From: Candidatus Hydrogenedentota bacterium
GTDB lineage: Bacteria; Hydrogenedentota; Hydrogenedentia; Hydrogenedentales; SLHB01
Direction: 5' to 3'
DNA: 55,528 bases
Assembly: GCA_045863295.1 (NCBI GenBank)
Contig: BTWA01000041.1
Span: forward strand, 1-55,528
The translations under genes and the position numbers were made by a program. Of the stretch, positions 33,562 through 51,631 are shown in pieces. Numbering within the stretch: the stretch's first letter is position 1; the number at the start of each line of letters is the position of its first letter. Below the pieces are notes generated by a model. It worked only from the letters and a program-made list of their open reading frames with translations, had not been told where the DNA came from and ran no database searches.

Positions 33562-35277
33562 TCATACCTGGTCGGTGGTGAGAGACTGTTGTGGTGATCC
33601 GGGAGGTGCGACGCAGACGCGATTCCGGCCTTCGGCTTTGGCACGGTATAGCGCTTTGTCTGCCTGTGCGATAAGCAATTCGCCCGCGGATCCATGTTCA
33701 GGAAAAGAACAGACTCCGATCGATACCGTAATTGCGGGCAAGGTCTCTCCGTTGTGCAACACCGACAATCCTTGAACCTCTGAAGCGATTTCCTCTGCCC
33801 TGCGACATGTGTTCTCAAAGTCGGACTCCGGCAACAAGAGAGCAAATTCCTCACCGCCATAGCGGCAAGCGAGATCGCTCCCCCGCACCCGGCTCTTCAG
33901 GATTTGTCCAAACGATTTCAGCACAGCGTCGCCGGCTTGGTGACCGAACTTGTCATTAAACGACTTGAAGTGATCGACATCGATCAGCATTACTCCGACG
34001 CCATGCTTGCTTCTGTTGGCGCGGCTAATCTCACGACGCAACGATTCTTCAAGATAGCGCCGGTTGAACAGTCCTGTCAGGCTGTCGGTTATGGATTGAT
34101 TCAACAACTGTTCGCGCAACAGGAGATTGGACAAGGCCATCCCGACGCCGCGCGCGACCGATTCCACTACGTTCCGCTTTGCTTCGTCCATGTCGTCCAG
34201 ATCGATATCCGCCAAGACCATGGTTCCCAGTGTTTCCCCCAGCGCGCTCATTGGCATACATGTGAACGATCGTTCAACAGGCCGGTCGTGATGACTACAG
34301 CCGATGCCGGCTTCCTTGCGGGTCACGTGGGGCCGTCCCATGCGCAACGCCCAACAAGACTGAGGATCGAAATCGTGGTTGCCGGGTGGATGGTCGCCCC
34401 AACGGGCTTCCACAGATACGAGATTGCGCGACGAGCGCGTGATACACAGCGCGCCGGAGGTGCCAGGAAAGGCCCTCTCCAAGAAGCTCTGCACTGCATC
34501 ATAGGTTTCCGAACGGTTGCGACACGCCTGAAGTATATGTCCCAATTCGCCCAACGCAGAAATTTCGGCATTTCGCGATTCGAGTTCAGTAATCCAGCGG
34601 GTCATCTGTTCGTTCGCGTTGCGTAGCTCCTTTTCCGCCAATTGCCTAGTGAGCACTTGCTGATTCAACAGCATCATGCACGTGAGCAGCACAATGAAGC
34701 CAAACGCCATGCCCGCAGTAAGCGCATACATAGTGTTGCGTTCGGCTGAATCGCGACGTTCCCTGCGCGCTTCAAGAAGGTTCAATTCGGATTCTTCAAA
34801 ATCGATTAATGCAGCGTGAAATTCATTGGCGAGCGCCATACCCTCCTGAATGGCAGCCCATTGTTTCACGGGCAAGTTGGCTTCGCTCTCCGTCGCTTTA
34901 AAGGCATTCTCCAACTGAACGTGGCGTTCGTTCATGAGCGTGTTGATGGCGGTGAGGCGATTGCGTTGTTCGGGATTGTCTTCAGTAAGGTCCCAAAGTT
35001 CTTCGTAGAAGACCCGAGATTTTTCCATTGCGACGGCAAATTCACCGGCCAACTCGCTGCTGGGAGAAAGTGCCGCTGCCCGGCGGACGCTTTCGGCTTC
35101 GCGCATTGCGGCGTTGAGCGCCTGGGTCTTCGCGATGATTACGTGGGTGTGTTCGACCCACCGCGCCTCGTCAAACAACCGGTTTGCAATCCATAGCGCG
35201 CCCAAGCTGACTATCGCCATGGCCGCACACGCTAATAGCAAGGCCGTTGTTAATTTGGGTCCGACGTGCCACTTCAT
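33562..35277 (-). CDS. Membrane diguanylate cyclase (CHASE3-GAF-GGDEF)
   Basis: Two TM helices flanking WVEHT..V..AES..R..LTEDNPEQ (CHASE3); CWALRMG GAF; DSLTGLFNRR, DVDHFK..ND..GH..GD, RGSD I-site, GGEEF. Confidence 0.93.
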   Translation of the reverse strand: MKWHVGPKLTTALLLACAAMAIVSLGALWIANRLFDEARWVEHTHVIIAKTQALNAAMREAESVRRAAALSPSSELAGEFAVAMEKSRVFYEELWDLTEDNPEQRNRLTAINTLMNERHVQLENAFKATESEANLPVKQWAAIQEGMALANEFHAALIDFEESELNLLEARRERRDSAERNTMYALTAGMAFGFIVLLTCMMLLNQQVLTRQLAEKELRNANEQMTRWITELESRNAEISALGELGHILQACRNRSETYDAVQSFLERAFPGTSGALCITRSSRNLVSVEARWGDHPPGNHDFDPQSCWALRMGRPHVTRKEAGIGCSHHDRPVERSFTCMPMSALGETLGTMVLADIDLDDMDEAKRNVVESVARGVGMALSNLLLREQLLNQSITDSLTGLFNRRYLEESLRREISRANRSKHGVGVMLIDVDHFKSFNDKFGHQAGDAVLKSFGQILKSRVRGSDLACRYGGEEFALLLPESDFENTCRRAEEIASEVQGLSVLHNGETLPAITVSIGVCSFPEHGSAGELLIAQADKALYRAKAEGRNRVCVAPPGSPQQSLTTDQV

Positions 35278-43523: not shown

Positions 43524-44558
43524 CTAGTCCTGGTCTATGGACACTTTCAACACATTTTCGGACGCCTTGGAAACTATCTCAAACCCTTCGCACGTCTTTT
43601 CCAAAGGTAGGTTGTGGGTGATAACCGAACTCACATCAATTCGTTTTTGTGCCACGAGCGTAATGGCCGTGGGAAAGTTGAATAGAAAGCGCCGGCACCA
43701 CGTTAGGGTCAGTTCTTTGCGCCGGGCGATATCCACCGGAATCACGCCGTTTTGCTCACCCGAGATCCCTACCATTACACCTCGCCCCGCCGGACGCATG
43801 ACGTGGCAGGCTATGCCGGGCGTCTCGGTGGATCGGGCACAGTCTATCGCTACGTCCACACCGCGACCCCGGGTCAATTCCTTGATTGTTGTAACGGTGT
43901 CGTGAAGGCCTGCGTTAAACCCGGTATCCACACCGTACTTCAAACTGGCCTCGACTCGGTAATTCAGCAGGTCTGTGCCGTAAATGGTACCCGCGCCCGC
44001 CAGTCGCGCGCACTGTGCCGTCAACAACCCAATGGGTCCCAGCCCCAATATAGCCACCGTTTCTCCCGGAATGATTCGGGCCAATTCCACCGCATGGAGT
44101 GCCACGGCGAGCGGTTCAATCATGGCCGCCTCCGCCGCCGAGACTTCTTCGGGCACCGGGAAACAGAATGCCGCATGAACCGCAATGTATTCGGCAAACG
44201 CGCCGTTGTTGGGCGGCATTCCGGGAAAAGTGAGTGTTGGGCATACATTGTAATGCCCTTTCTGGCAAAACTCGCAACGTAGACATGGGATGCCGGGTTC
44301 CACCGCCACCCGTTTTCCAACGAGGCTCGGGTCAGCTTCGCTTCCTACGGCCTCAACGATGCCGGCATATTCATGTCCAAGTATGAGGGGCTCGGTGAGA
44401 ACCGTGCGTCCAATGCGCCCCTCTTCAAAGTAGTGCATGTCCGAACCACAAATTCCGGTGGATTCTATTCGGATTAAGGCTTCGTGAGGAAGGGGTAATG
44501 GTTTGGGAATGTCCACCATACGCATCGTGTGAGGTGCAACCCATTGAACGGCTTTCAT
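43524..44558 (-). CDS. Zinc-dependent MDR dehydrogenase (sorbitol/polyol dehydrogenase-like)
   Basis: GICGSD.H, GHE, CLRCEFC.....NVC structural Zn site, EPLAV, GLGPIG. Confidence 0.93.
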   Translation of the reverse strand: MKAVQWVAPHTMRMVDIPKPLPLPHEALIRIESTGICGSDMHYFEEGRIGRTVLTEPLILGHEYAGIVEAVGSEADPSLVGKRVAVEPGIPCLRCEFCQKGHYNVCPTLTFPGMPPNNGAFAEYIAVHAAFCFPVPEEVSAAEAAMIEPLAVALHAVELARIIPGETVAILGLGPIGLLTAQCARLAGAGTIYGTDLLNYRVEASLKYGVDTGFNAGLHDTVTTIKELTRGRGVDVAIDCARSTETPGIACHVMRPAGRGVMVGISGEQNGVIPVDIARRKELTLTWCRRFLFNFPTAITLVAQKRIDVSSVITHNLPLEKTCEGFEIVSKASENVLKVSIDQD

Positions 44559-44621
44559 AGTGGAAAATCTTCCTTGGAGTAGGGGGAGATAGCACGTTAC
44601 CATTACCATGTGCGTCAAGGC

Positions 44622-44661
44622 AAAAAGAAACGGCGGCAACAGGTGAAACCGTTGCCGCCGT
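44622..44661 (-). terminator. Rho-independent terminator of the degenerate GGDEF gene
   Basis: ACGGCGGCAAC/GTTGCCGCCGT stem followed by TTCTTTTT on the - strand. Confidence 0.85.
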
Positions 44662-44676
44662 ATTGGAAACTACGTC

Positions 44677-45249
44677 TTAGTGGATTGTGCCGGGTTGCGA
44701 TTGAGTACCCGCTTCAGGAGCGTTTGGTCGGAGATGGCGGGCCACGGAATTGTGCCTGTCCATCGCCAGTTTGAGGAAGTCGTCGGCCAGGTTGGCATCG
44801 ACCGGAAAACTGGTCAACGTGTAGCCGTATCCGCGCATGAACTGTTCCAGATCTCCGTTAATCCGATCCAACACTTTCTGAGCACCATCTTCAGGGGTCT
44901 CTACAAGCAAAATTGCCAAACCGTGTGTGCTGAGGGAAAATACCTGATCTGATGCACGGAGTTCTTCTTCGAGGCGTTTGCCTAAATTGAAAAGGATTTC
45001 TTCTCCGTTCACTGGAGCACACAATGTGACCAGCGTGGTCGAAGACGGATAACGGATAGACCTCTCGATTTCTTCTGTAACTCGTGCATGCAAGTACGTT
45101 TCCGTACGAAGACCAGTACTTGGGTCGCGATAGGCGAGCTTCTCGAGGAGATGGCAGCGCCGTTCCAACTCGCTTCGCTGGCGAATCTCGTCCCGGAGGC
45201 GCGCCTGCAAATCTTCTATTGCGGACTTTAACGACTGCAAATCATCCAT
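44677..45249 (-). CDS. Coiled-coil + degenerate GGDEF protein retaining RxxD I-site (putative c-di-GMP receptor)
   Basis: AYRDPSTGL...EEIERS.R entry motif; RASD-QVFSL-STHGL in place of RxxD-x5-GGDEF; LLVETPEDGA.....RI; SFPVD; GGGAGAG RBS. Confidence 0.8.
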   Translation of the reverse strand: MDDLQSLKSAIEDLQARLRDEIRQRSELERRCHLLEKLAYRDPSTGLRTETYLHARVTEEIERSIRYPSSTTLVTLCAPVNGEEILFNLGKRLEEELRASDQVFSLSTHGLAILLVETPEDGAQKVLDRINGDLEQFMRGYGYTLTSFPVDANLADDFLKLAMDRHNSVARHLRPNAPEAGTQSQPGTIH

Positions 45250-45275
45250 GCTGTCTCTCCCACTCATCTTGAAGG

Positions 45276-45292
45276 AGCAAAACACATGCCAA
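45276..45292 (-). promoter_or_regulatory. sigma54 (-24/-12) promoter for the degenerate GGDEF gene
   Basis: TTGGCATGTGTTTTGCT on the - strand (GG-N10-GC), about 27 bp upstream of ATG 45249. Confidence 0.8.
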
Positions 45293-45346
45293 GGCGTGCA
45301 AACGGGCCATTATCCTTCCAACCCCTTAAAACTCGACCCCTTAGGC

Positions 45347-45375
45347 AATATATTGTATTTGTCGAGGGATGTCAA
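45347..45375 (-). promoter_or_regulatory. Putative sigma70 promoter, leftward
   Basis: TTGACA-17 bp-TATATT on the - strand. Confidence 0.55.
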
Positions 45376-45453
45376 TCCTCTATCAAGTGGGCGTAAGGTG
45401 TTCAACTTTGACAACTTTTTTACTTGATTAGACATATTGGGTGTGTCAATCGC

Positions 45454-45482
45454 TTGACATCCCACATGATGTTGTTTAGCAT
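45454..45482 (+). promoter_or_regulatory. Putative sigma70 promoter for the pseudo-kinase/activator operon
   Basis: TTGACA-17 bp-TAGCAT. Confidence 0.6.
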
Positions 45483-45617
45483 AAAGCGGGTCAAGCTTCG
45501 GGGAGCCGACCTAACTCGTTGCTAACGGTAAGCTTCGGTGGCTTTTTTGTGGATGCCTGACGGTCTACGGAAAACCAGTCCGTCAAAATGTTACATCGTT
45601 GTCAAAAGGGCTAACAA

Positions 45618-47288
45618 TTGTCCGAAATACCCAAAGCTAGCACGCCCCCCCGTGTCCTCCTCGTGGAAGACGAAGTAATCCAATTGGAATTCCTGTGCCG
45701 TCTTTTGACCAAAGAAGGCTATATCTGCGATTCCGCCACAACCTGTGCAGAAGGGAAGCGACTCTTTGAAAAAGGGCGTTATGCCTGTGCACTGGTCGAC
45801 CTTGGACTGCCCGACGGAAATGGCCTTTCACTGATTGAGGCATTTCACGAGATTGACCCATGCCTCGTTTCGGTCGTGCTCACGGGGGATTCGTCGGTCG
45901 ATACCGTGGTTGGCACGTTGCGATCGGGAGCATTCGACTTCCTTGCGAAACCTGCAGGTATTGAGACATTGCAGGCCACTCTCAAGCGAGCCATGTCTCA
46001 CCATCAACTTTTGATCGAACGAAACGAGTTGCTTCAGCTCTTGTTGGAGGAACGCGAGCAGTTGCGAGAAAGGGTGGAGGCTGCTACGGCCGATATCCGT
46101 GCGTTTGCCGCCGCCACCGAAGTGAGCAACGCGCGATTGCGCACACTTCTGCGATTGACGCAGTTTGCCCATACCAACTACGGGGAAGACCAGCTTCTTT
46201 TGCAGGTGGTGGAAGAGCTCCGGAGACATTTGCCTGTGCGCGCCGTAGCCGTGTGCGACGTGACACGGATGAGATTTGCCGCGGTCTGCGTGTTCGAGAA
46301 TGGCGGCACGGAATTCATTTCTGGAGAAAGCGGACAATCGCAAACATCTATAGATTCAGTCATTTCGCAGCGCGATCCGGGCATGTTGATCTCAAGTTGG
46401 TTGGAGCAGAACACGGATCTTGACGTTGGACAATTGCAGGGGTTTGTATTCACACAACGCTATTCCAACCAGACTTCATTCATCGTGGCGATATATAGTG
46501 AGTCCGATCCTGCGCACGATTTGTCCAGAGAAGAGTTCCTTGATATGTGCGCCCATTTCATCGGAATGGAATGGGAACGCACGGGCTTGCTCTACCACGT
46601 GGCCCACCAGGCCAGCTTGGGAAATATAGCAGTGGAACTGGCCCGGAACTTTGTACAGCCGTTGACGGCGATTCAGACTGCGGCTGACTATGTTAATGAA
46701 GCGAACCCAAGCCCGGAAGTAACGGAAGGAATGACCATTATCCAGGAAAGCGTCGATCGATTGCGCCGGCAAGTGCAAGAGTATCGCAAGCTATCCTTGC
46801 AGCGGGAAGATTCCGTCGAAACAGTACGACTCGATGAGTATGTATCGCAAGCCATCGGCATGCTTACCGTGGCTATTCAGAATCGGGGCGTAAAGATCCA
46901 AACGGAGTTTATGGACGATTGCGAATGCATACTCTTGAATGGAACGGCGCTGGCCCGCACATTTCTCGACGTGGTGCTGGGTGCGCTGAGGGAAGTGGAA
47001 ATTGGCGGAAACCTTGCATTGCAACTGGCGGCCATTGGTCACGATCATGTGAATTTTTCTGTTATGTACATGGCCCAGCGCGAACGGGGAGAAGGAGATT
47101 CCCGCGGCTTTGCGTCGTCGTCGGCAGACGTCGGCATTGAACCCATTCTGCAACTGGCCGAGCGGACCATCCACCGTTGCGCAGGCACGCTTCGAATGGA
47201 TCGCGACGACGACGGCCAGACGGCAATCCGCATTGTGCTGCCCCGGAATGCGACCCGCACTGGAGAAGCGTGGGAGGCCGTACGGTGA
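45618..47288 (+). CDS. Receiver-GAF-like-degenerate histidine kinase (pseudokinase)
   Basis: Intact receiver (VEDE, VDLGLPDGNG, LTG, KP). H-box reads SLGNIAVELARNFVQPLTAI with no His; N box and DxGxG absent. Confidence 0.8.
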   Translation: MSEIPKASTPPRVLLVEDEVIQLEFLCRLLTKEGYICDSATTCAEGKRLFEKGRYACALVDLGLPDGNGLSLIEAFHEIDPCLVSVVLTGDSSVDTVVGTLRSGAFDFLAKPAGIETLQATLKRAMSHHQLLIERNELLQLLLEEREQLRERVEAATADIRAFAAATEVSNARLRTLLRLTQFAHTNYGEDQLLLQVVEELRRHLPVRAVAVCDVTRMRFAAVCVFENGGTEFISGESGQSQTSIDSVISQRDPGMLISSWLEQNTDLDVGQLQGFVFTQRYSNQTSFIVAIYSESDPAHDLSREEFLDMCAHFIGMEWERTGLLYHVAHQASLGNIAVELARNFVQPLTAIQTAADYVNEANPSPEVTEGMTIIQESVDRLRRQVQEYRKLSLQREDSVETVRLDEYVSQAIGMLTVAIQNRGVKIQTEFMDDCECILLNGTALARTFLDVVLGALREVEIGGNLALQLAAIGHDHVNFSVMYMAQRERGEGDSRGFASSSADVGIEPILQLAERTIHRCAGTLRMDRDDDGQTAIRIVLPRNATRTGEAWEAVR

Positions 47289-48730
47289 GCGCATTTAATC
47301 CTGAGATGGAAGTATCAGACGGAGGCGGGTTCGGCGAGGATGAACCCACCCAGTGGGTAGTTGTCCTGGATACAGATCCTGGAGTGCGATGGGCCCTTCA
47401 GAAAGGACTGGAAAGGTCAGGTTATTTGGTGGAAGCGGCCACCACTATTGCGGATGCGCTGCAACGCGTGAAAGACCGACAGGCCGCGGCCGTTATATTG
47501 GAAATCCTACCGGAAGCAGGACTGACCGCCGAAGCCCTTACCATGCTTGTTGAAACAGAACCGGCTACGCGCGTGATTTGTGTTTCGATAGATACTGCGC
47601 CGCAGATGGTCATTGAATGTATGCGAAGGGGAGCATCCGATTTTCTACCCAAACCGTTTAATCTCGCCGAAATTCGGGCGGCGCTGAGCCGTGCCCTTTT
47701 GCCAGGCGAAGGCAGGCGTCAGATGCTACGTCCCCGGGCTGCCGCGAAGGCTGCCGAGCCGGGGCAGTCGTTTCTCATTGGTATCAGTCCCCTGATTCAA
47801 GAACTCCGCGACGTAATCAAGCGCGTTTCTCAAACCGACCTGAATTGCCTGATCCGCGGAGAAAGTGGTACTGGCAAGGATATGGTTGCTCGAGAATTGC
47901 ACCGTTTGTCTCGGCGCAAAGACAAACCCTTTGTGAAAGTGAATTGCACCGCGTTGCCAGAGCAACTGCTCGAGAGTGAGCTTTTTGGATACGAGAAAGG
48001 TGCATTTACGGGCGCAATCACCTCCAAACCAGGACGCTTTGAACTCGCGCATCGAGGCATCATTTTTCTCGATGAGATCGGGGACATGCACCCGAACTTG
48101 CAAGCAAAGCTTTTGCAGGTCATCGAACATAAGGAATTTACAAAGCTTGGGGGCCGCAAATCAATCCATGTAGATGTGCAGATCATTGCAGCGACAAACG
48201 CCGATTTGGAGTTAAAAACTCGGAATGGGTCTTTTCGAGAAGACCTCTACTTCCGGTTAAATGAAGTCTGCATCTGGGTGCCTCCGCTATCCGCTCGTAA
48301 GGAGGACGTACCCCTGTTGGTGCGCCATTTCATTCAGAAGCATGGAAATTTCGCAGGGGGAAATTCCGTACAGATTGCGGGCTCCGACCTCGAATCGCTC
48401 ACCGCGCACGAATGGCCTGGCAATGTGCGCGAGCTGGAGAGCACCGTTAAGCGTTGGATGGCACTCGGGCAAAATGCCCTGACCGTAGGCAACCGAACGC
48501 AGACTGCGAATGAGCCCAAACACGCGCAGGCACCTTTGTCGGCATCCATCACTGCTTCTGCCACGAATTCGCGAAATCCTGTGGCGGAGCCGGAAATGAG
48601 TGAAGAAGAACGCATTCGGCGGGCGTTGGAGGTGCACCAGTGGAATCGTCGCAAAGCGGCGGACGCGTTGGGGATGAGCTATCAAACGTTGCGACGCAGG
48701 ATTGAAAAGTTTGAGTTGGACCTGCCCTGA
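47285..48730 (+). CDS. sigma54-dependent Fis/NtrC-family activator with atypical receiver
   Basis: GESGTGKD, ESELFGYEKGAFTGA, FLDEIGD, FREDLYFRLN, WPGNVRELE, C-terminal HTH; receiver VLDTD...VILEI. GTG overlaps the upstream TGA, with GGGAGG RBS. Confidence 0.93.
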   Translation: MSAFNPEMEVSDGGGFGEDEPTQWVVVLDTDPGVRWALQKGLERSGYLVEAATTIADALQRVKDRQAAAVILEILPEAGLTAEALTMLVETEPATRVICVSIDTAPQMVIECMRRGASDFLPKPFNLAEIRAALSRALLPGEGRRQMLRPRAAAKAAEPGQSFLIGISPLIQELRDVIKRVSQTDLNCLIRGESGTGKDMVARELHRLSRRKDKPFVKVNCTALPEQLLESELFGYEKGAFTGAITSKPGRFELAHRGIIFLDEIGDMHPNLQAKLLQVIEHKEFTKLGGRKSIHVDVQIIAATNADLELKTRNGSFREDLYFRLNEVCIWVPPLSARKEDVPLLVRHFIQKHGNFAGGNSVQIAGSDLESLTAHEWPGNVRELESTVKRWMALGQNALTVGNRTQTANEPKHAQAPLSASITASATNSRNPVAEPEMSEEERIRRALEVHQWNRRKAADALGMSYQTLRRRIEKFELDLP

Positions 48731-48931
48731 TGCGCCAAATTGCTAATCTGCTTGTTCAGTATTGAGCAACCCTCCCGCAGAAATGATTACAAAAGCAAAC
48801 TCTTGTCTGCCGTTATGCCATATTTCCGCCAGTTTGGTGTACAATAAGGATAAGGTTGAGCGACCTGAAAGGTATATTATAGTTGGATTTATGGAATTTC
48901 ATAATTATCGATTTTGTTAAGAGATAATTTA

Positions 48932-48981
48932 TTGTTCAATTCTGAATATGTTCTGTGACGAAATTGTTCATATCTGACATA
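48932..48981. promoter_or_regulatory. Tandem putative enhancer (UAS) sites
   Basis: TTGTTCA-ATTC-TGAATAT and TTGTTCA-TATC-TGACATA, 32 bp apart and about 100-145 bp upstream of a sigma54 promoter; related copies at 48752 and 45399. Confidence 0.55.
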
Positions 48982-49076
48982 CCTTCCATGGCCTCACCAT
49001 CCGTTGGCGGACAGTTGAATCCAGGCAAAAATCAGTATGTGACTGATTTTAAAGCACTTACCTCTGTGCCAACTTT

Positions 49077-49093
49077 TTGGCATGGTTTGTGCT
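49077..49093 (+). promoter_or_regulatory. sigma54 (-24/-12) promoter for the PEP-CTERM gene
   Basis: TTGGCATGGTTTGTGCT (GG-N10-GC). Confidence 0.75.
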
Positions 49094-49220
49094 CAATATT
49101 TGGCGTAGAGGTGACTAGGGATGGCACGCGGGTGAATCTTGAGATTCCGGCGCTCCCACAATCACCTTCAAATGACCTTAAAACCCAGGGCTAGGCAAGT
49201 TTCCCTAAGGAGAAAAGAAG

Positions 49221-50012
49221 ATGAAACGCCTGACAGTGGTAGCGACGGTTCTGATAGCTGGGTTGGTGACAACCTCAGCTTTCGGGGACATAGTAACCCC
49301 GCAGGAACCGAACGGTGGCGAACCGTGGCTGTATGAAATCTACAACTCACTTTACGGCACCTCGTTCACGCAGAGCAGCGACCTTCTCGCCGTGCAGACC
49401 GGCTGGGATACGATGACGCTTGATGCCGATGTCGAATCGTTGACCTTCGAAGCGGTTTGGCGGCAGGCATACATGCAGGGCAACTATGGTATTTACACGG
49501 TGAATGGCGGCGTGGCGGATTACACCGAAATTGGCGGCCCATTCGACAATGCCGGCCCAACGTTTGGCCAAGGCCCAATCACGGGCGATTCGCACACGGT
49601 ATTGGTGGGTGACATTGGAAGCACGACGATAGGATTTTACGAGCGTGCGACGACTCCTGACAATCCGTTGACCCCCGAATTTGAAGCCAACTTCCAAGAG
49701 GGCTTCATGTGGCACGGCGAAAATGGCCGTAATTTTTCCATCAACGATTCGTCGTGGGATTCGATTATCTCGCAGCAAGAGCACCTGTTGATTCTGACGA
49801 CGTCGGACCCGAACGTGTTCTTGCTTGCGTTTGAAGACTTGCCCTTCAGCTTCATCAGCTCTTCGGGCGAGGAATTGGGCGACAGCGATTACCAAGACTT
49901 GCTGGTCCAAGTGACGCTGAATCGGACTGTGGTCCCGGAACCGGCCACGATGGCGTTGCTGGGATTGGGCCTCGCGGGCTTCGCAGTTCGCCGGCGGTTC
50001 ATGAAGAAGTAA
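49221..50012 (+). CDS. PEP-CTERM sorting-domain protein (DUF4114-like region)
   Basis: Signal peptide; AFEDLP..DSDYQD; VPEPATMALLGLGLAGFAVRRRFMKK; TAAGGAG RBS. Confidence 0.95.
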   Translation: MKRLTVVATVLIAGLVTTSAFGDIVTPQEPNGGEPWLYEIYNSLYGTSFTQSSDLLAVQTGWDTMTLDADVESLTFEAVWRQAYMQGNYGIYTVNGGVADYTEIGGPFDNAGPTFGQGPITGDSHTVLVGDIGSTTIGFYERATTPDNPLTPEFEANFQEGFMWHGENGRNFSINDSSWDSIISQQEHLLILTTSDPNVFLLAFEDLPFSFISSSGEELGDSDYQDLLVQVTLNRTVVPEPATMALLGLGLAGFAVRRRFMKK

Positions 50013-50046
50013 GTTTGGCCTAGTCCCTCCATGTGAGGGTTAAAAA

Positions 50047-50105
50047 TCCGGCTTCGGCCGGACGGGCGGCAAGGTAGAGCGCAACCTTGCCGCCCTTCTA
50101 CTTTT
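50047..50105 (+). terminator. UUCG hairpin plus Rho-independent terminator after the PEP-CTERM gene
   Basis: TCCGGC-TTCG-GCCGGA, then 12-bp stem GGGCGGCAAGGT/ACCTTGCCGCCC followed by TTCTACTTTT. Confidence 0.8.
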
Positions 50106-50254
50106 GAAGCAAGCATGGTTAGGCGCGACATTTGCTCGCTTTCGGATGTACAATAGATACCGTTGGACATTCGGTAAGCGAAGTGGGGTACGCCCGGGGG
50201 AACGGCGTATTCCTGTTGGATTTGCTTCCATCTGTCCATTTTGGGGGAACCGCA

Positions 50255-51631
50255 ATGAATGAATACACCATAGGCCTCGATCCGTCTGAAGCGCCTGATT
50301 ACTGGTACAACATTACGCCCGATTTGCCCGTACCCATGGACCCGCCTTTGCACCCGGGAACGCTGAATCCATTGACGCCCGAAGATCTGACCGCAATATT
50401 CCCGGAGAATCTAATTGAACAGGAAATGTCGCACGAGCGGGAGATTTCCATACCTGGTGCAATCATGGACGCGTATCGCCTGTGGCGTGCCACTCCGTTG
50501 AGGCGCGCGCACCGGCTGGAAAAGGCGCTGGATACTCCCGCGAGAATCTACTACAAAAATGAGAGCGTATCGCCGTCGGGTAGCCACAAGATCAACTCCG
50601 CCATCGCGCAGGTCTATTACAACAAAGCAGCGGGGGTGAAGGAGATGGCTACCGAGACTGGCGCAGGACAGTGGGGGACGGCGCTGTCGATAGCCTGCAG
50701 TATGCTCGACGTGAAATGCACAGTCTATATGGTTCGCGTCAGCTACAACCAGAAACCCTACCGGCGAATTCTCATGCAATCGTATGGCGGCCGGGTGATC
50801 GCCAGTCCAAGTGAAACGACGGAATCGGGGCGAGACTTCCTTATGCAGGACCCCGGCACTTCAGGCAGTCTGGGAATGGCAATCTCCGAAGCGGTCGAAG
50901 TGGCTGCGAAGAGTGGGGGGTACATTAAATATGGTTTGGGCAGTGTGCTTAACCACGTACTTTTGCACCAGACGGTGATAGGACTGGAAGCCAAGAAACA
51001 GATGGAGAAGTCGGGAGACTATCCGGACATCGTGATAGGGTGTTGCGGAGGGGGCTCCAATTTTGCGGGACTTGCATTTCCCTATGTGCAGGATAAGCTC
51101 AAACACGGCAGGTCCATCGATATCATTGCGGTGGAACCTTCGGCATGTCCGACCTTGACCCGGGGCGTGTACGCCTACGACTATGGTGACACGGCCCATT
51201 TGACGCCCCTGCTCATGCAGTACACGCTTGGGCACCGGTTTATGCCGCCCGGAATCCATGCAGGCGGCTTGCGATATCACGGGGTGGCCCAGCAAGTGGC
51301 GTTGCTGGCGCGCCACGGAGTGATTCGCGCGGAAGCGCGTACGCAACGGCCTTGCTTTGAAGCGGCATTACTGTTTGCAAAAACAGAGGCAATTGTGCCC
51401 GCACCCGAGTCGAGTCATGCGATACGTGTGGCAATCGACGAGGCATTGAAATGCCGGGAGTCTGGTGAAAGCAAAACCATTCTGTTCAATTTGAGTGGAC
51501 ATGGTCATTTCGATATGTCCGCCTATGAAGCATATCTGAGTGGTGAGTTACAGGATCTTGAACTGGAGGATGATGTCATCCGAAAAGCGGAACAAGACAT
51601 TCCTAAAGTCGATTTGGCGGCGATTTCTTGA
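50255..51631 (+). CDS. trpB2: TrpB2 (TrpB-like PLP enzyme, stand-alone tryptophan synthase beta type 2)
   Basis: [21 protein letters not shown] lysine, [46 protein letters not shown]. Confidence 0.93.

Follow-up and report, generated by a model that had tools for sequence, protein, structure and literature searches.

The 55,528-nucleotide stretch of contig BTWA01000041.1 (GenBank assembly GCA_045863295.1) analysed here, referred to throughout as the window, comes from a Candidatus Hydrogenedentota bacterium and carries a locus at which a kinase-like protein and a sigma-54 activator appear to cooperate without passing a phosphoryl group between them. The core comprises four genes: one for a degenerate GGDEF-like protein (190 residues; 44677–45249, minus strand) and, divergent from it and all on the plus strand, those for a REC-sensor-pseudokinase (labelled pHK; 556 residues; 45618–47288), an NtrC-type sigma-54 activator (labelled EBP; 481 residues; 47285–48730), and a PEP-CTERM protein (263 residues; 49221–50012). 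The balance of the evidence leans, if only slightly, towards this module being a lineage-specific Hydrogenedentota regulator that controls exosortase cargo, that is, PEP-CTERM proteins, through sigma-54 and with the wiring proposed below. Domains were assigned with Pfam and NCBIfam profile searches, which agree on the assignments. Genome-wide counts were taken over 41 genomes, namely the source genome (G000) and 40 relatives (G001 onward), with L- and C-numbers denoting loci and contigs, respectively. The orthologue set consists of 25 loci (L014–L038), one per genome from 25 of the 40 relatives, the proteins of which were aligned.

pHK combines the fold of a histidine kinase with the loss of the residues required for phosphotransfer. 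Pfam recognises a REC domain (66 bits), a HisKA match of 17.5 bits falls under the 26.9 cut-off, and the HATPase_c profile of Pfam finds no match in the protein. Arg343 occupies the histidine position, in the H-box register A-x-x-x-x-P-L-T-A-I; the asparagine of the N box is replaced by glycine; and no G1 box or DxGxG motif is present in pHK, the lid region being of variable length among orthologues (N, G1, and G2 box positions were assigned from consensus motifs). The AlphaFold model, with a mean predicted local distance difference test (pLDDT) score of 80.2 and a disordered lid at residues 489–507, contains both the four-helix-bundle hairpin of a DHp domain and the alpha/beta fold of a CA domain. 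In this model, a receiver (residues 12–114) is followed by a helix of around 70 residues (115–183), an alpha/beta sensor-like domain (190–300), the DHp domain (302–394), and the CA-like domain (400–545). Foldseek matched the model to kinases at E values of 1e-13 to 1e-9, with low whole-chain template modelling (TM) scores since the protein is multidomain; the top matches were LvrB (8vc9, a receiver-first hybrid kinase), LOV-kinase chimeras, and phytochromes, with DivL (4q20) and RetS (6dk7) ranking lower. The best NCBIfam kinase match of the core is AtoS (E 7.9e-12).

The histidine is missing throughout the family. The histidine position holds Arg or Lys in 24 of the 25 orthologous loci, with Gln in the remaining one (L036), and a wider family of 146 members (E up to 1e-5) gave, in its best 120, 96 Arg, 23 Lys, one Asn, and no His. 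At the N-box Asn position, the same 120 proteins are variable (Gly 55, Ser 28, Asn 11, and others). pHK orthologues are 36–52% identical to the window protein, and the mean identity is highest in the DHp domain (0.56), followed by the coiled helix (0.54), the REC domain (0.48), the CA-like domain (0.43), and the sensor-like domain (0.29). The degenerate DHp and CA-like domains are thus about as well conserved as the live REC domain. Judged from these alignments, the loss of the histidine is fixed and does not represent decay.

The N-terminal receiver of pHK itself is different in this respect: it keeps Asp18, Asp61, Thr89, and Lys111 and is canonical in 25 of 25 loci, and thus the module would still take phosphoryl input. 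The description of the module as 'all-degenerate' in the original prediction, which was made from the letters of the sequence, consequently stands for the three proteins in that each lacks catalytic or phospho-acceptor residues, but does not extend to this receiver. The accompanying label of GAF for the middle domain of pHK is a lead only: neither Pfam nor NCBIfam finds a GAF domain there, and whole-model Foldseek cannot separate PAS from GAF, but the Atlas feature matches are all GAF (0.91, with few shared features), and TM scores of 0.62–0.65 were obtained to the GAF_2 parts of FhlA-type clusters.

EBP has the complete make-up of an NtrC-type activator by its Pfam matches (Sigma54_activat PF00158, 228.8 bits; REC PF00072, 54 bits; HTH_8, 45.6 bits) and its motifs, with GESGTGKD, GAFTGA, the DE of Walker B, and HTH_8 all intact. 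Orthologues are 54–69% identical to it; the ATPase and GAFTGA motifs are kept in the window and in all 23 of them (one reads ERGAFTGA), and the HTH region is conserved. The phospho-Asp position of its receiver, at the end of beta-3, is occupied by Glu73 ('ILEILPE'), and the same substitution is found in 23 of 23 orthologues, inside a conserved 'LE(I/L)LPEAGL'. The rest of the receiver pocket—DxD, Ser, and Lys-Pro, with one Arg for Lys—is kept across these orthologues. Twelve activators of the source genome have a receiver-like N terminus, of which nine carry Asp, two Glu, and one (C54) neither.

The two genes are tightly coupled. The GTG start of EBP overlaps the TGA stop of pHK (GTGA) with GGGAGG lying 7 nucleotides upstream; EBP adjoins pHK in 23 of 25 loci, and its start overlaps or abuts the pHK stop in 19 of 24, an arrangement conducive to making both proteins in equal amounts. 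One ENA metagenome contig encodes a 791-residue protein (P0166) in which the C-terminal half of pHK is fused in frame to a full EBP; this may be a natural fusion or an assembly error in the form of a frameshift at the overlapping stop and start. That the kinase-like protein is without phospho-His, N box, and G1 box, and that the translationally coupled activator joins a Glu at the phospho-Asp position to intact Walker A/B and GAFTGA motifs, had both been read correctly from the window, and the orthologues conserve these degenerate residues, neither restoring them nor showing decay.

The three genes could also be functionless remnants of a two-component system and a cyclase, as the absence of all the catalytic motifs might suggest. 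L036 (G007:C37) looks like the sole locus resembling decay or a change of partner: its pHK is divergent (37% identity), with Gln at the histidine position, one in-frame TGA, and no adjoining EBP. Elsewhere, full-length open frames are found in 24 of 25 loci spread over at least nine of the 13 families searched, conservation is high at the non-catalytic residues, the GGDEF-like protein remains 56–72% identical across genomes in which pHK is 36–52% identical, and the cis-elements described below are also conserved. Decay is therefore extremely improbable, being already contradicted by these patterns of conservation.

Docking between the two proteins was modelled with two copies of pHK residues 300–556 and EBP residues 18–150, both with alignments, alongside three controls; the complex prediction that had been suggested for the module was run on this pair only. 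The complex scored 0.62 (runs of 0.60, 0.62, and 0.63) against 0.32 for the best control, in which chain 1 was replaced. The score mark is one reached by 116 of 157 solved complexes and by two of 215 mismatched pairs. At least 82% of contacts are shared between the runs, with a partner pLDDT of at least 81. The modelled interface consists of DHp helix 1 of pHK (residues 343 and 346–361) and, on the EBP receiver, residues 30–44 (the acidic loop and helix 1), 75–78, 102, and 123–130. Both this docking face and the acidic pocket of the receiver are strongly conserved. The model supports docking of the pHK DHp domain on the EBP receiver in the canonical kinase-receiver manner and, as residue 343 lies in the interface opposite the Glu73 pocket, a salt bridge between the two replaced phospho-sites can be proposed.

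The precedent of NifL suggests another geometry. According to PMC12998190, NifL is kinase-like without kinase activity and uses its DH and GHKL domains to contact NifA stoichiometrically, the bound part of NifA being the AAA+ domain and not a receiver. By analogy, pHK would be an anti-activator that clamps the AAA+ domain of EBP through its DHp and CA-like domains, with the Glu-receiver having another role or none, and the regulon and inputs being unchanged. The pHK and EBP genes are likewise coupled, and the CA-like fold is conserved despite having no ATP motifs. However, the conserved docking face and acidic pocket of the EBP receiver point to a role for the receiver, the geometry that reached the score mark, DHp against receiver, was the single one modelled, and the NifL GHKL domain binds ADP according to PMC12998190, whereas the pHK CA-like domain is without the boxes. 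We regard clamping of this type as rather unlikely.

Alternatively, the two proteins may act independently, with Glu73 serving as a phosphomimic that renders EBP constitutive, such that its activity is set by its level or by a small molecule, and with pHK being a separate receiver-containing protein, for example a phosphate sink or an adaptor, that has only the operon in common with EBP. The D54E variant of NtrC is partly constitutive, which lends this some plausibility, and a second Glu-type activator of the source genome (C15; L157:4042–5427, minus strand; 'VLITELSA') is followed by a gene for a HEAT-repeat protein and has no kinase-like neighbour, and hence Glu-receivers can stand alone in this genome. 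Such independence would leave unexplained the adjacency and overlapping or abutting genes of the pair, as well as the status of DHp as the best-conserved domain of pHK. The histidine position, moreover, does not vary freely, being basic in 119 of the best 120 family members (the other having Asn), the complex model reached its mark, and P0166 fuses the pair in frame, albeit possibly through an assembly error. Independent action thus has a low probability, and the reading in which pHK contacts the EBP receiver is preferred in what follows.

Sigma-54 promoters, sought with the pattern TGGCAY-N5-TTGCW, flank the operon and face outward. That of the GGDEF-like gene, TGGCATGTGTTTTGCT, is an exact match at 45291–45276 on the minus strand, from which the transcript would start around 15 nucleotides before the ATG; that of the PEP-CTERM gene, TGGCATGGTTTGTGCT, has one mismatch and lies at 49078–49093 on the plus strand. 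The pattern is not rare, with five matches in the window at up to one mismatch against 4.3 expected; since the match count alone is not significant, the promoter assignment rests on conservation. Of 14 complete GGDEF-like genes, 13 are preceded at a matching position by a site with up to one mismatch (the miss being L024), and such a site also precedes seven of seven downstream PEP-CTERM genes. In addition, both promoters have the GG/GC spacing, are intergenic, and face their gene, and rpoN is present in the source genome.

Upstream of each promoter lie copies of a shared site. The motif noted earlier, TGTTCA-N4-TGA (TGTTCANNNNTGA), occurs four times in the window (45399, 48753, 48933, and 48965), always in the two intergenic regions; 0.42 copies were expected, and none of 100 shuffles reached four. 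Alignment of upstream regions revealed that the motif is one copy of a 16-bp palindrome, TTGTCA-N4-TGACAA. The copy TGTTCAACTTTGACAA (45399–45414) is 123 bp upstream of the GGDEF-like promoter, and TGTTCATATCTGACAT (48965–48980), TGTTCAATTCTGAATA (48933–48948), and the weak copy TGTTCAGTATTGAGCA (48753–48768) are 113, 145, and 325 bp upstream of the PEP-CTERM promoter, strand not being applicable to any of the four. In 11 of 13 GGDEF-like promoters, the best palindrome copy (up to two mismatches) is 121–125 bp upstream of TGGCA, and in the remaining two it is at −117 and −134. Two loci that start at a contig end (L017 and L020) have the upstream site and a two-mismatch promoter facing outward, and there the GGDEF-like gene has probably been cut off. 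The two outward-facing promoters and their upstream sites are therefore where they had originally been placed, and both promoters, with the site, are conserved at orthologous positions across genera.

The reach of this site-promoter combination was examined with an exact composite pattern (TGTCA-N4-TGACA-N85-120-TGGCAY-N5-TKGC) in the 41 genomes, the reversed pattern serving as a control. There were nine matches, compared with none for the control: three GGDEF-like promoters, five PEP-CTERM genes unlinked to the module (G030:C6, G010:C17, G024:C24, and two in tandem on G009:C69), and one type IV pilin-like gene (G040). A half-site composite gave 29 matches, again against none for the reversed control, of which 26 were classified (L142, L144, and L153 fell outside the position filter) as six PEP-CTERM, two GGDEF-like, seven distinct pilin-like, and ten other or none. 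One of the six PEP-CTERM genes has, by eye, an AEP variant tail, and three of them (G024:C110, G017:C40, and G003:C11) are new from this search, bringing the unlinked PEP-CTERM genes of relatives with palindrome plus promoter to eight. No composite preceding a PEP-CTERM or GGDEF-like gene came from a genome lacking the pHK–EBP pair. G017 and G030 possess the pair and no GGDEF-like gene, and their composites precede PEP-CTERM genes; the PEP-CTERM genes hence look like the core targets, with the GGDEF-like gene being the addition of one subclade.

The local PEP-CTERM protein scores 36.2 bits against PF07589 (cut-off 20.7) and 26.1 bits against TIGR02595 (cut-off 16); it carries a signal peptide and ends in the sorting tail VPEP-hydrophobic-RRR. 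A PEP-CTERM gene follows the pair in only seven of 26 loci. Of the three-gene synteny originally expected, the pHK–EBP pair holds, but the GGDEF-like gene accompanies it in only 16 of 29 genomes.

Another composite lies before a glycosyltransferase-like gene at locus L131 (G037:C28:36180–36298), where a one-mismatch palindrome and a sigma-54 promoter are found around 10 kb upstream of the pHK of G037, on the same contig; this genome has the pair and no exosortase match. Within the source genome, a scan for site and promoter, each with up to two mismatches, gave matches besides the GGDEF-like promoter that had no downstream PEP-CTERM gene; two of these lie on C4 between divergent genes of another kind. 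These matches were set aside as probable chance occurrences or sites of another activator.

The position of the palindrome and its co-distribution with the pair make EBP the probable binder, but the site and both promoters might instead belong to another activator, with the local EBP having other targets. The source genome encodes around 25 sigma-54 activators, and a related half-site precedes pilin-like genes in relatives, most of which carry an everted TGACAA-N4/5-TTGTCA together with a sigma-54 promoter (L118, L127, L135, L147, L148, and L150, in G040, G034, G016, G035, G026, and G010, respectively). These everted composites also occur in genomes without pHK and are read for that reason as the regulon of another activator, probably a PilR-type regulon with a similar half-site. 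For the palindrome proper, however, the best-conserved copy sits beside the operon, among the divergent promoters, and its spacing is constant in 11 of 13 loci; all of the PEP-CTERM and GGDEF-like composites are in genomes with the pair, and the HTH region of EBP is conserved. An activator other than EBP is thus very unlikely to be the one acting at these promoters.

The product of the divergent gene is a GGDEF domain in fold and not in catalytic sequence. Pfam GGDEF matches marginally and over only part of the domain (26.9 bits; cut-off 23.8). The protein reads R98-A-S-D101, then five residues, then STHGL at the GGDEF position, and a profile search against solved structures places an 11-residue deletion where the metal/GTP segment (DxD...ND...GD) aligns. 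The family comprises around 120 clusters at 90% identity, all of 105–198 residues; among 117 aligned relatives, as many as 90 pentapeptides occupy the GGDEF position, GG[DE]EF not being one of them. By contrast with this variability, Arg98 and Asp101 of the RxxD are present in 117 of 117, as the original prediction of STHGL with a retained RxxD would have it. A further arginine, Arg129, is invariant in a 14-sequence alignment (14/14) and matches PleD Arg390 both by register with solved cyclases and by its offset from RxxD; PMC7288161 describes PleD Arg390 and RxxD as together forming the GGDEF I-site. The model (pLDDT 82.8) consists of an N-terminal helix (residues 2–39) followed by the GGDEF fold, and its closest folds are stalk-plus-GGDEF cyclases (GCN4-WspR, DgcR, SiaD, and DgcB). 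With the GG[DE]EF motif and the metal/GTP segment missing, and the residues of the I-site present, the protein is most likely a receptor for cyclic diguanylate (c-di-GMP).

Signalling by c-di-GMP exists in the source genome, which has 17 GGDEF-domain matches; the best-scoring (179.8 bits) is at 33619–34092 on the minus strand, in a 587-residue frame around 10 kb from the module. Of the 41 genomes, 16 carry the GGDEF-like gene, all of them among the 29 with the pair, and it is always beside pHK, with the exception of a second copy in G009. This copy is unlinked (L156:3099–3653, plus strand; G009:C177; 184 residues), and neither a palindrome (up to two mismatches) nor a sigma-54 site (up to one) was found within 3 kb of it. 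The feedback loop originally proposed for this gene reduces to its being a target of the module only.

The distribution of pHK follows that of the sorting system it would serve. A pHK orthologue (E up to 1e-39) is present in 29 of 41 genomes. With a strong exosortase (EpsH) match defined as at least 160 bits to PF09721, such a match is found in 26 of the 29 genomes with pHK, against none of the 12 without it; the exosortase of the source genome scores 213.9 bits and is on C14. The three pHK genomes without a strong match are G009 (93% complete, with composite-bearing PEP-CTERM genes), G023 (84% complete), and G037. Family members are labelled 'Candidatus Hydrogenedentes', 'Hydrogenedentota', or 'Hydrogenedentales', and the Atlas pHK cluster is commonest in Candidatus Hydrogenedentota; three relatives of the same order (G027, G029, and G037) carry the label of uncultured Nitrospirales or Nitrospiraceae, in conflict with the majority label, which is adopted here. 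A locus search based on the pHK alignment was of little use for distribution, with 76 of its 79 loci being generic receivers and three true orthologues.

The known regulators of PEP-CTERM genes, PrsK and PrsR, have no member at this locus. EBP scores 331.8 bits against TIGR02915 (PrsR), short of the 502.6 cut-off; 11 other activators of the source genome outscore it on this profile, and none reaches the cut-off. For PrsK (TIGR02916, cut-off 300 bits), the best of 52 matches in the source genome scores 118 bits, and pHK is not among them; nor does pHK have the transmembrane kinase architecture of PrsK, starting as it does with a receiver domain. The proposal of a phosphotransfer-independent substitute for PrsK/PrsR is accordingly supported in part by the lack of either protein above cut-off, the tracking of exosortase, and the PEP-CTERM composites, and has to be qualified in that the pHK receiver would still take phosphoryl input.

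In the wiring proposed, a sigma-70-type promoter would drive the two-gene operon of pHK and its translationally coupled EBP, a pair presumed to descend from an AtoS/NtrB-type kinase and its activator. No phosphate can pass from pHK to EBP, because His is replaced by Arg or Lys, the ATP boxes are gone, and phospho-Asp is replaced by Glu. Instead, the two would associate stoichiometrically by way of the former kinase-receiver contact, in which DHp helix 1 packs on the receiver at its helix 1 and beta5-alpha5 face, with the Arg or Lys of pHK facing the acidic Glu pocket. We infer that this complex sets whether EBP assembles an active ring, pHK holding or releasing the activator by contact. The signal would enter via pHK, the N-terminal receiver of which would be phosphorylated by another kinase, possibly with a ligand on the GAF-like domain as a further input. 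EBP would then bind TTGTCA-N4-TGACAA and fire sigma-54 promoters 85–125 bp downstream. Its targets would be single-gene PEP-CTERM units, linked or unlinked, and in one subclade also the divergent dead-GGDEF gene, the product of which would most likely be a c-di-GMP receptor that is present only while the module is active.

A bolder version is possible, though the probability is against it: replacement of both phospho-sites by a charge pair (Arg/Lys versus Glu) would have created a permanent, salt-bridged complex, gated by the phosphorylated pHK receiver and, in one subclade, also by c-di-GMP via the co-induced dead-GGDEF adaptor feeding back on it, and exosortase cargo in Hydrogenedentota would have this pair as its master regulator, one that evolved independently of PrsK/PrsR.

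Besides the NifL precedent, the number of activators that could bind the palindrome, and the everted half-sites discussed above, several observations weigh against the proposed reading of the module. The host is uncultured, and the module is known here from sequence and models. The complex score may reflect likeness to known pairs, because kinase-receiver complexes have already been solved, and the exosortase co-occurrence is suggestive and not statistical because related genomes are not independent samples. At PEP-CTERM promoters (n = 8), where the palindrome is mostly at −84 to −115, it has up to two mismatches in four and up to three in seven. Ten loci without the GGDEF-like gene have neither site nor promoter near the operon. 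G007, despite its strong exosortase match, has no EBP within 5 kb of pHK.

In the source genome itself, no further convincing target was found beyond the two local promoters, and other PEP-CTERM genes (found by pattern at C5:42090 and C6:137882) are without a good palindrome. Upstream of the gene at C6:137882 (plus strand), 72 bp from its start, lies the sigma-54-like site TGGCGCGCGACTTGCT, and this gene may answer to a different activator. RNA evidence for the module is negligible: the two runs examined hold just 5–8% of sampled words and are both stored as contigs, one (X1) being probably DNA and the other (X2) an RNA library from a bioreactor metagenome. X2 contigs identical to the window cover 49115–49393 only, a stretch that takes in the leader of the PEP-CTERM gene and its 5′ end. 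They begin around 10 nucleotides past the expected sigma-54 transcript start, but contigs show no start, strand, or level, and as DNA can contaminate such libraries, nothing is concluded from them.

Further features complete the locus. Terminator-like hairpins of the intrinsic type lie directly 3′ of the GGDEF-like gene (44630–44661, minus strand; 13 pairs and a T-run) and after the PEP-CTERM gene (50064–50095, plus strand; 12 pairs), and because these strong hairpins close each gene, both are single-gene units; the gap between EBP and the PEP-CTERM gene is 490 bp. A sigma-70-like promoter for the pHK–EBP operon, TTGACA-17-TAGCAT, is at 45454–45482 on the plus strand, and its hexamers recur, by eye, upstream of the operon in L014, L015, L021, and L022. 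A second one, TTGACA-17-TATATT (45347–45375, minus strand; 11/12 consensus), between the upstream site and the GGDEF-like sigma-54 promoter, could give basal expression of that gene, and was not seen by eye in orthologous upstream regions. An Rfam scan of 44400–50300 at E up to 1 gave no match. The outer neighbours encode a Zn-dependent dehydrogenase and a TrpB-like enzyme, and look unrelated to the module.

Haft and colleagues (2006; PMC1569441) noted that different regulators and DNA motifs, still to be discovered, must serve the PEP-CTERM genes of organisms outside the Proteobacteria. The module is a concrete candidate for such a regulator, with a candidate activator, site, promoters, and regulon, in a phylum that has almost no experimental genetics. 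No paper describing it was found in the literature searched, subscription journals being outside coverage, and none joining Hydrogenedentes and PEP-CTERM. On the alignments and the docking model, its unusual feature is the joint, phylum-wide swap of both phospho-sites for opposite charges with the docking surfaces retained; as a natural, deeply conserved example of a pair whose phospho-residues disappeared from both partners together, it makes the role of a kinase-receiver interface without phosphate transfer directly testable. The small stalk-GGDEF family also adds to the candidate receptors for c-di-GMP.

Individual parts of the module have counterparts elsewhere. PopA and PelD are degenerate GGDEF receptors for c-di-GMP that use the RxxD I-site, and the GGDEF-like protein would resemble them in keeping the fold and RxxD, together with the second Arg, without the catalytic motif; it differs in being a 190-residue soluble protein of coiled-coil stalk and GGDEF, in the layout of SiaD, DgcR, and DgcB, with the 11-residue deletion. 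DivL and RetS, structural neighbours of the pHK model, are kinase-like proteins whose signalling works through binding and not phosphotransfer, with DivL having another residue at the histidine position and binding a receiver protein through its DHp domain. Their pathways and partners differ, and neither is known to be paired, as pHK is, with a sigma-54 activator having Glu at the phospho-site. LvrB shares the receiver-first layout of pHK, but is by its entry title a live phospho-protein.

The closest parallels for the module as a whole are two. Like PrsK/PrsR(/PrsT) of Proteobacteria (PMC1569441), it encodes an NtrC-type activator and a kinase-like partner in tandem, its PEP-CTERM targets stand as single-gene units behind long upstream regions in which an activator site is combined with a sigma-54 −24/−12 promoter, and its regulators track exosortase across genomes. 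Unlike PrsK, which is transmembrane and has a live His, pHK is soluble and receiver-first with Arg at the histidine position; unlike PrsR, EBP has Glu at the Asp position, a different upstream motif, and a degenerate GGDEF gene as an added target. The parallel with NifL–NifA (PMC12998190) is that of a protein of kinase architecture without kinase activity, co-expressed with a sigma-54 activator, and of a complex—here proposed—in place of phosphotransfer. NifL, however, is laid out as PAS-PAS-DH-GHKL and binds ADP in its GHKL domain, and NifA carries a GAF domain but lacks a receiver, whereas the module has a phosphorylatable receiver and GAF-like fold, a CA domain without nucleotide boxes, and a Glu-receiver on the activator; the resemblance is one of mechanism only, without membership of a sequence family. 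By these analogies, the module most likely works like PrsK/PrsR in its targets and like NifL–NifA in its mode, and is a member of neither family.

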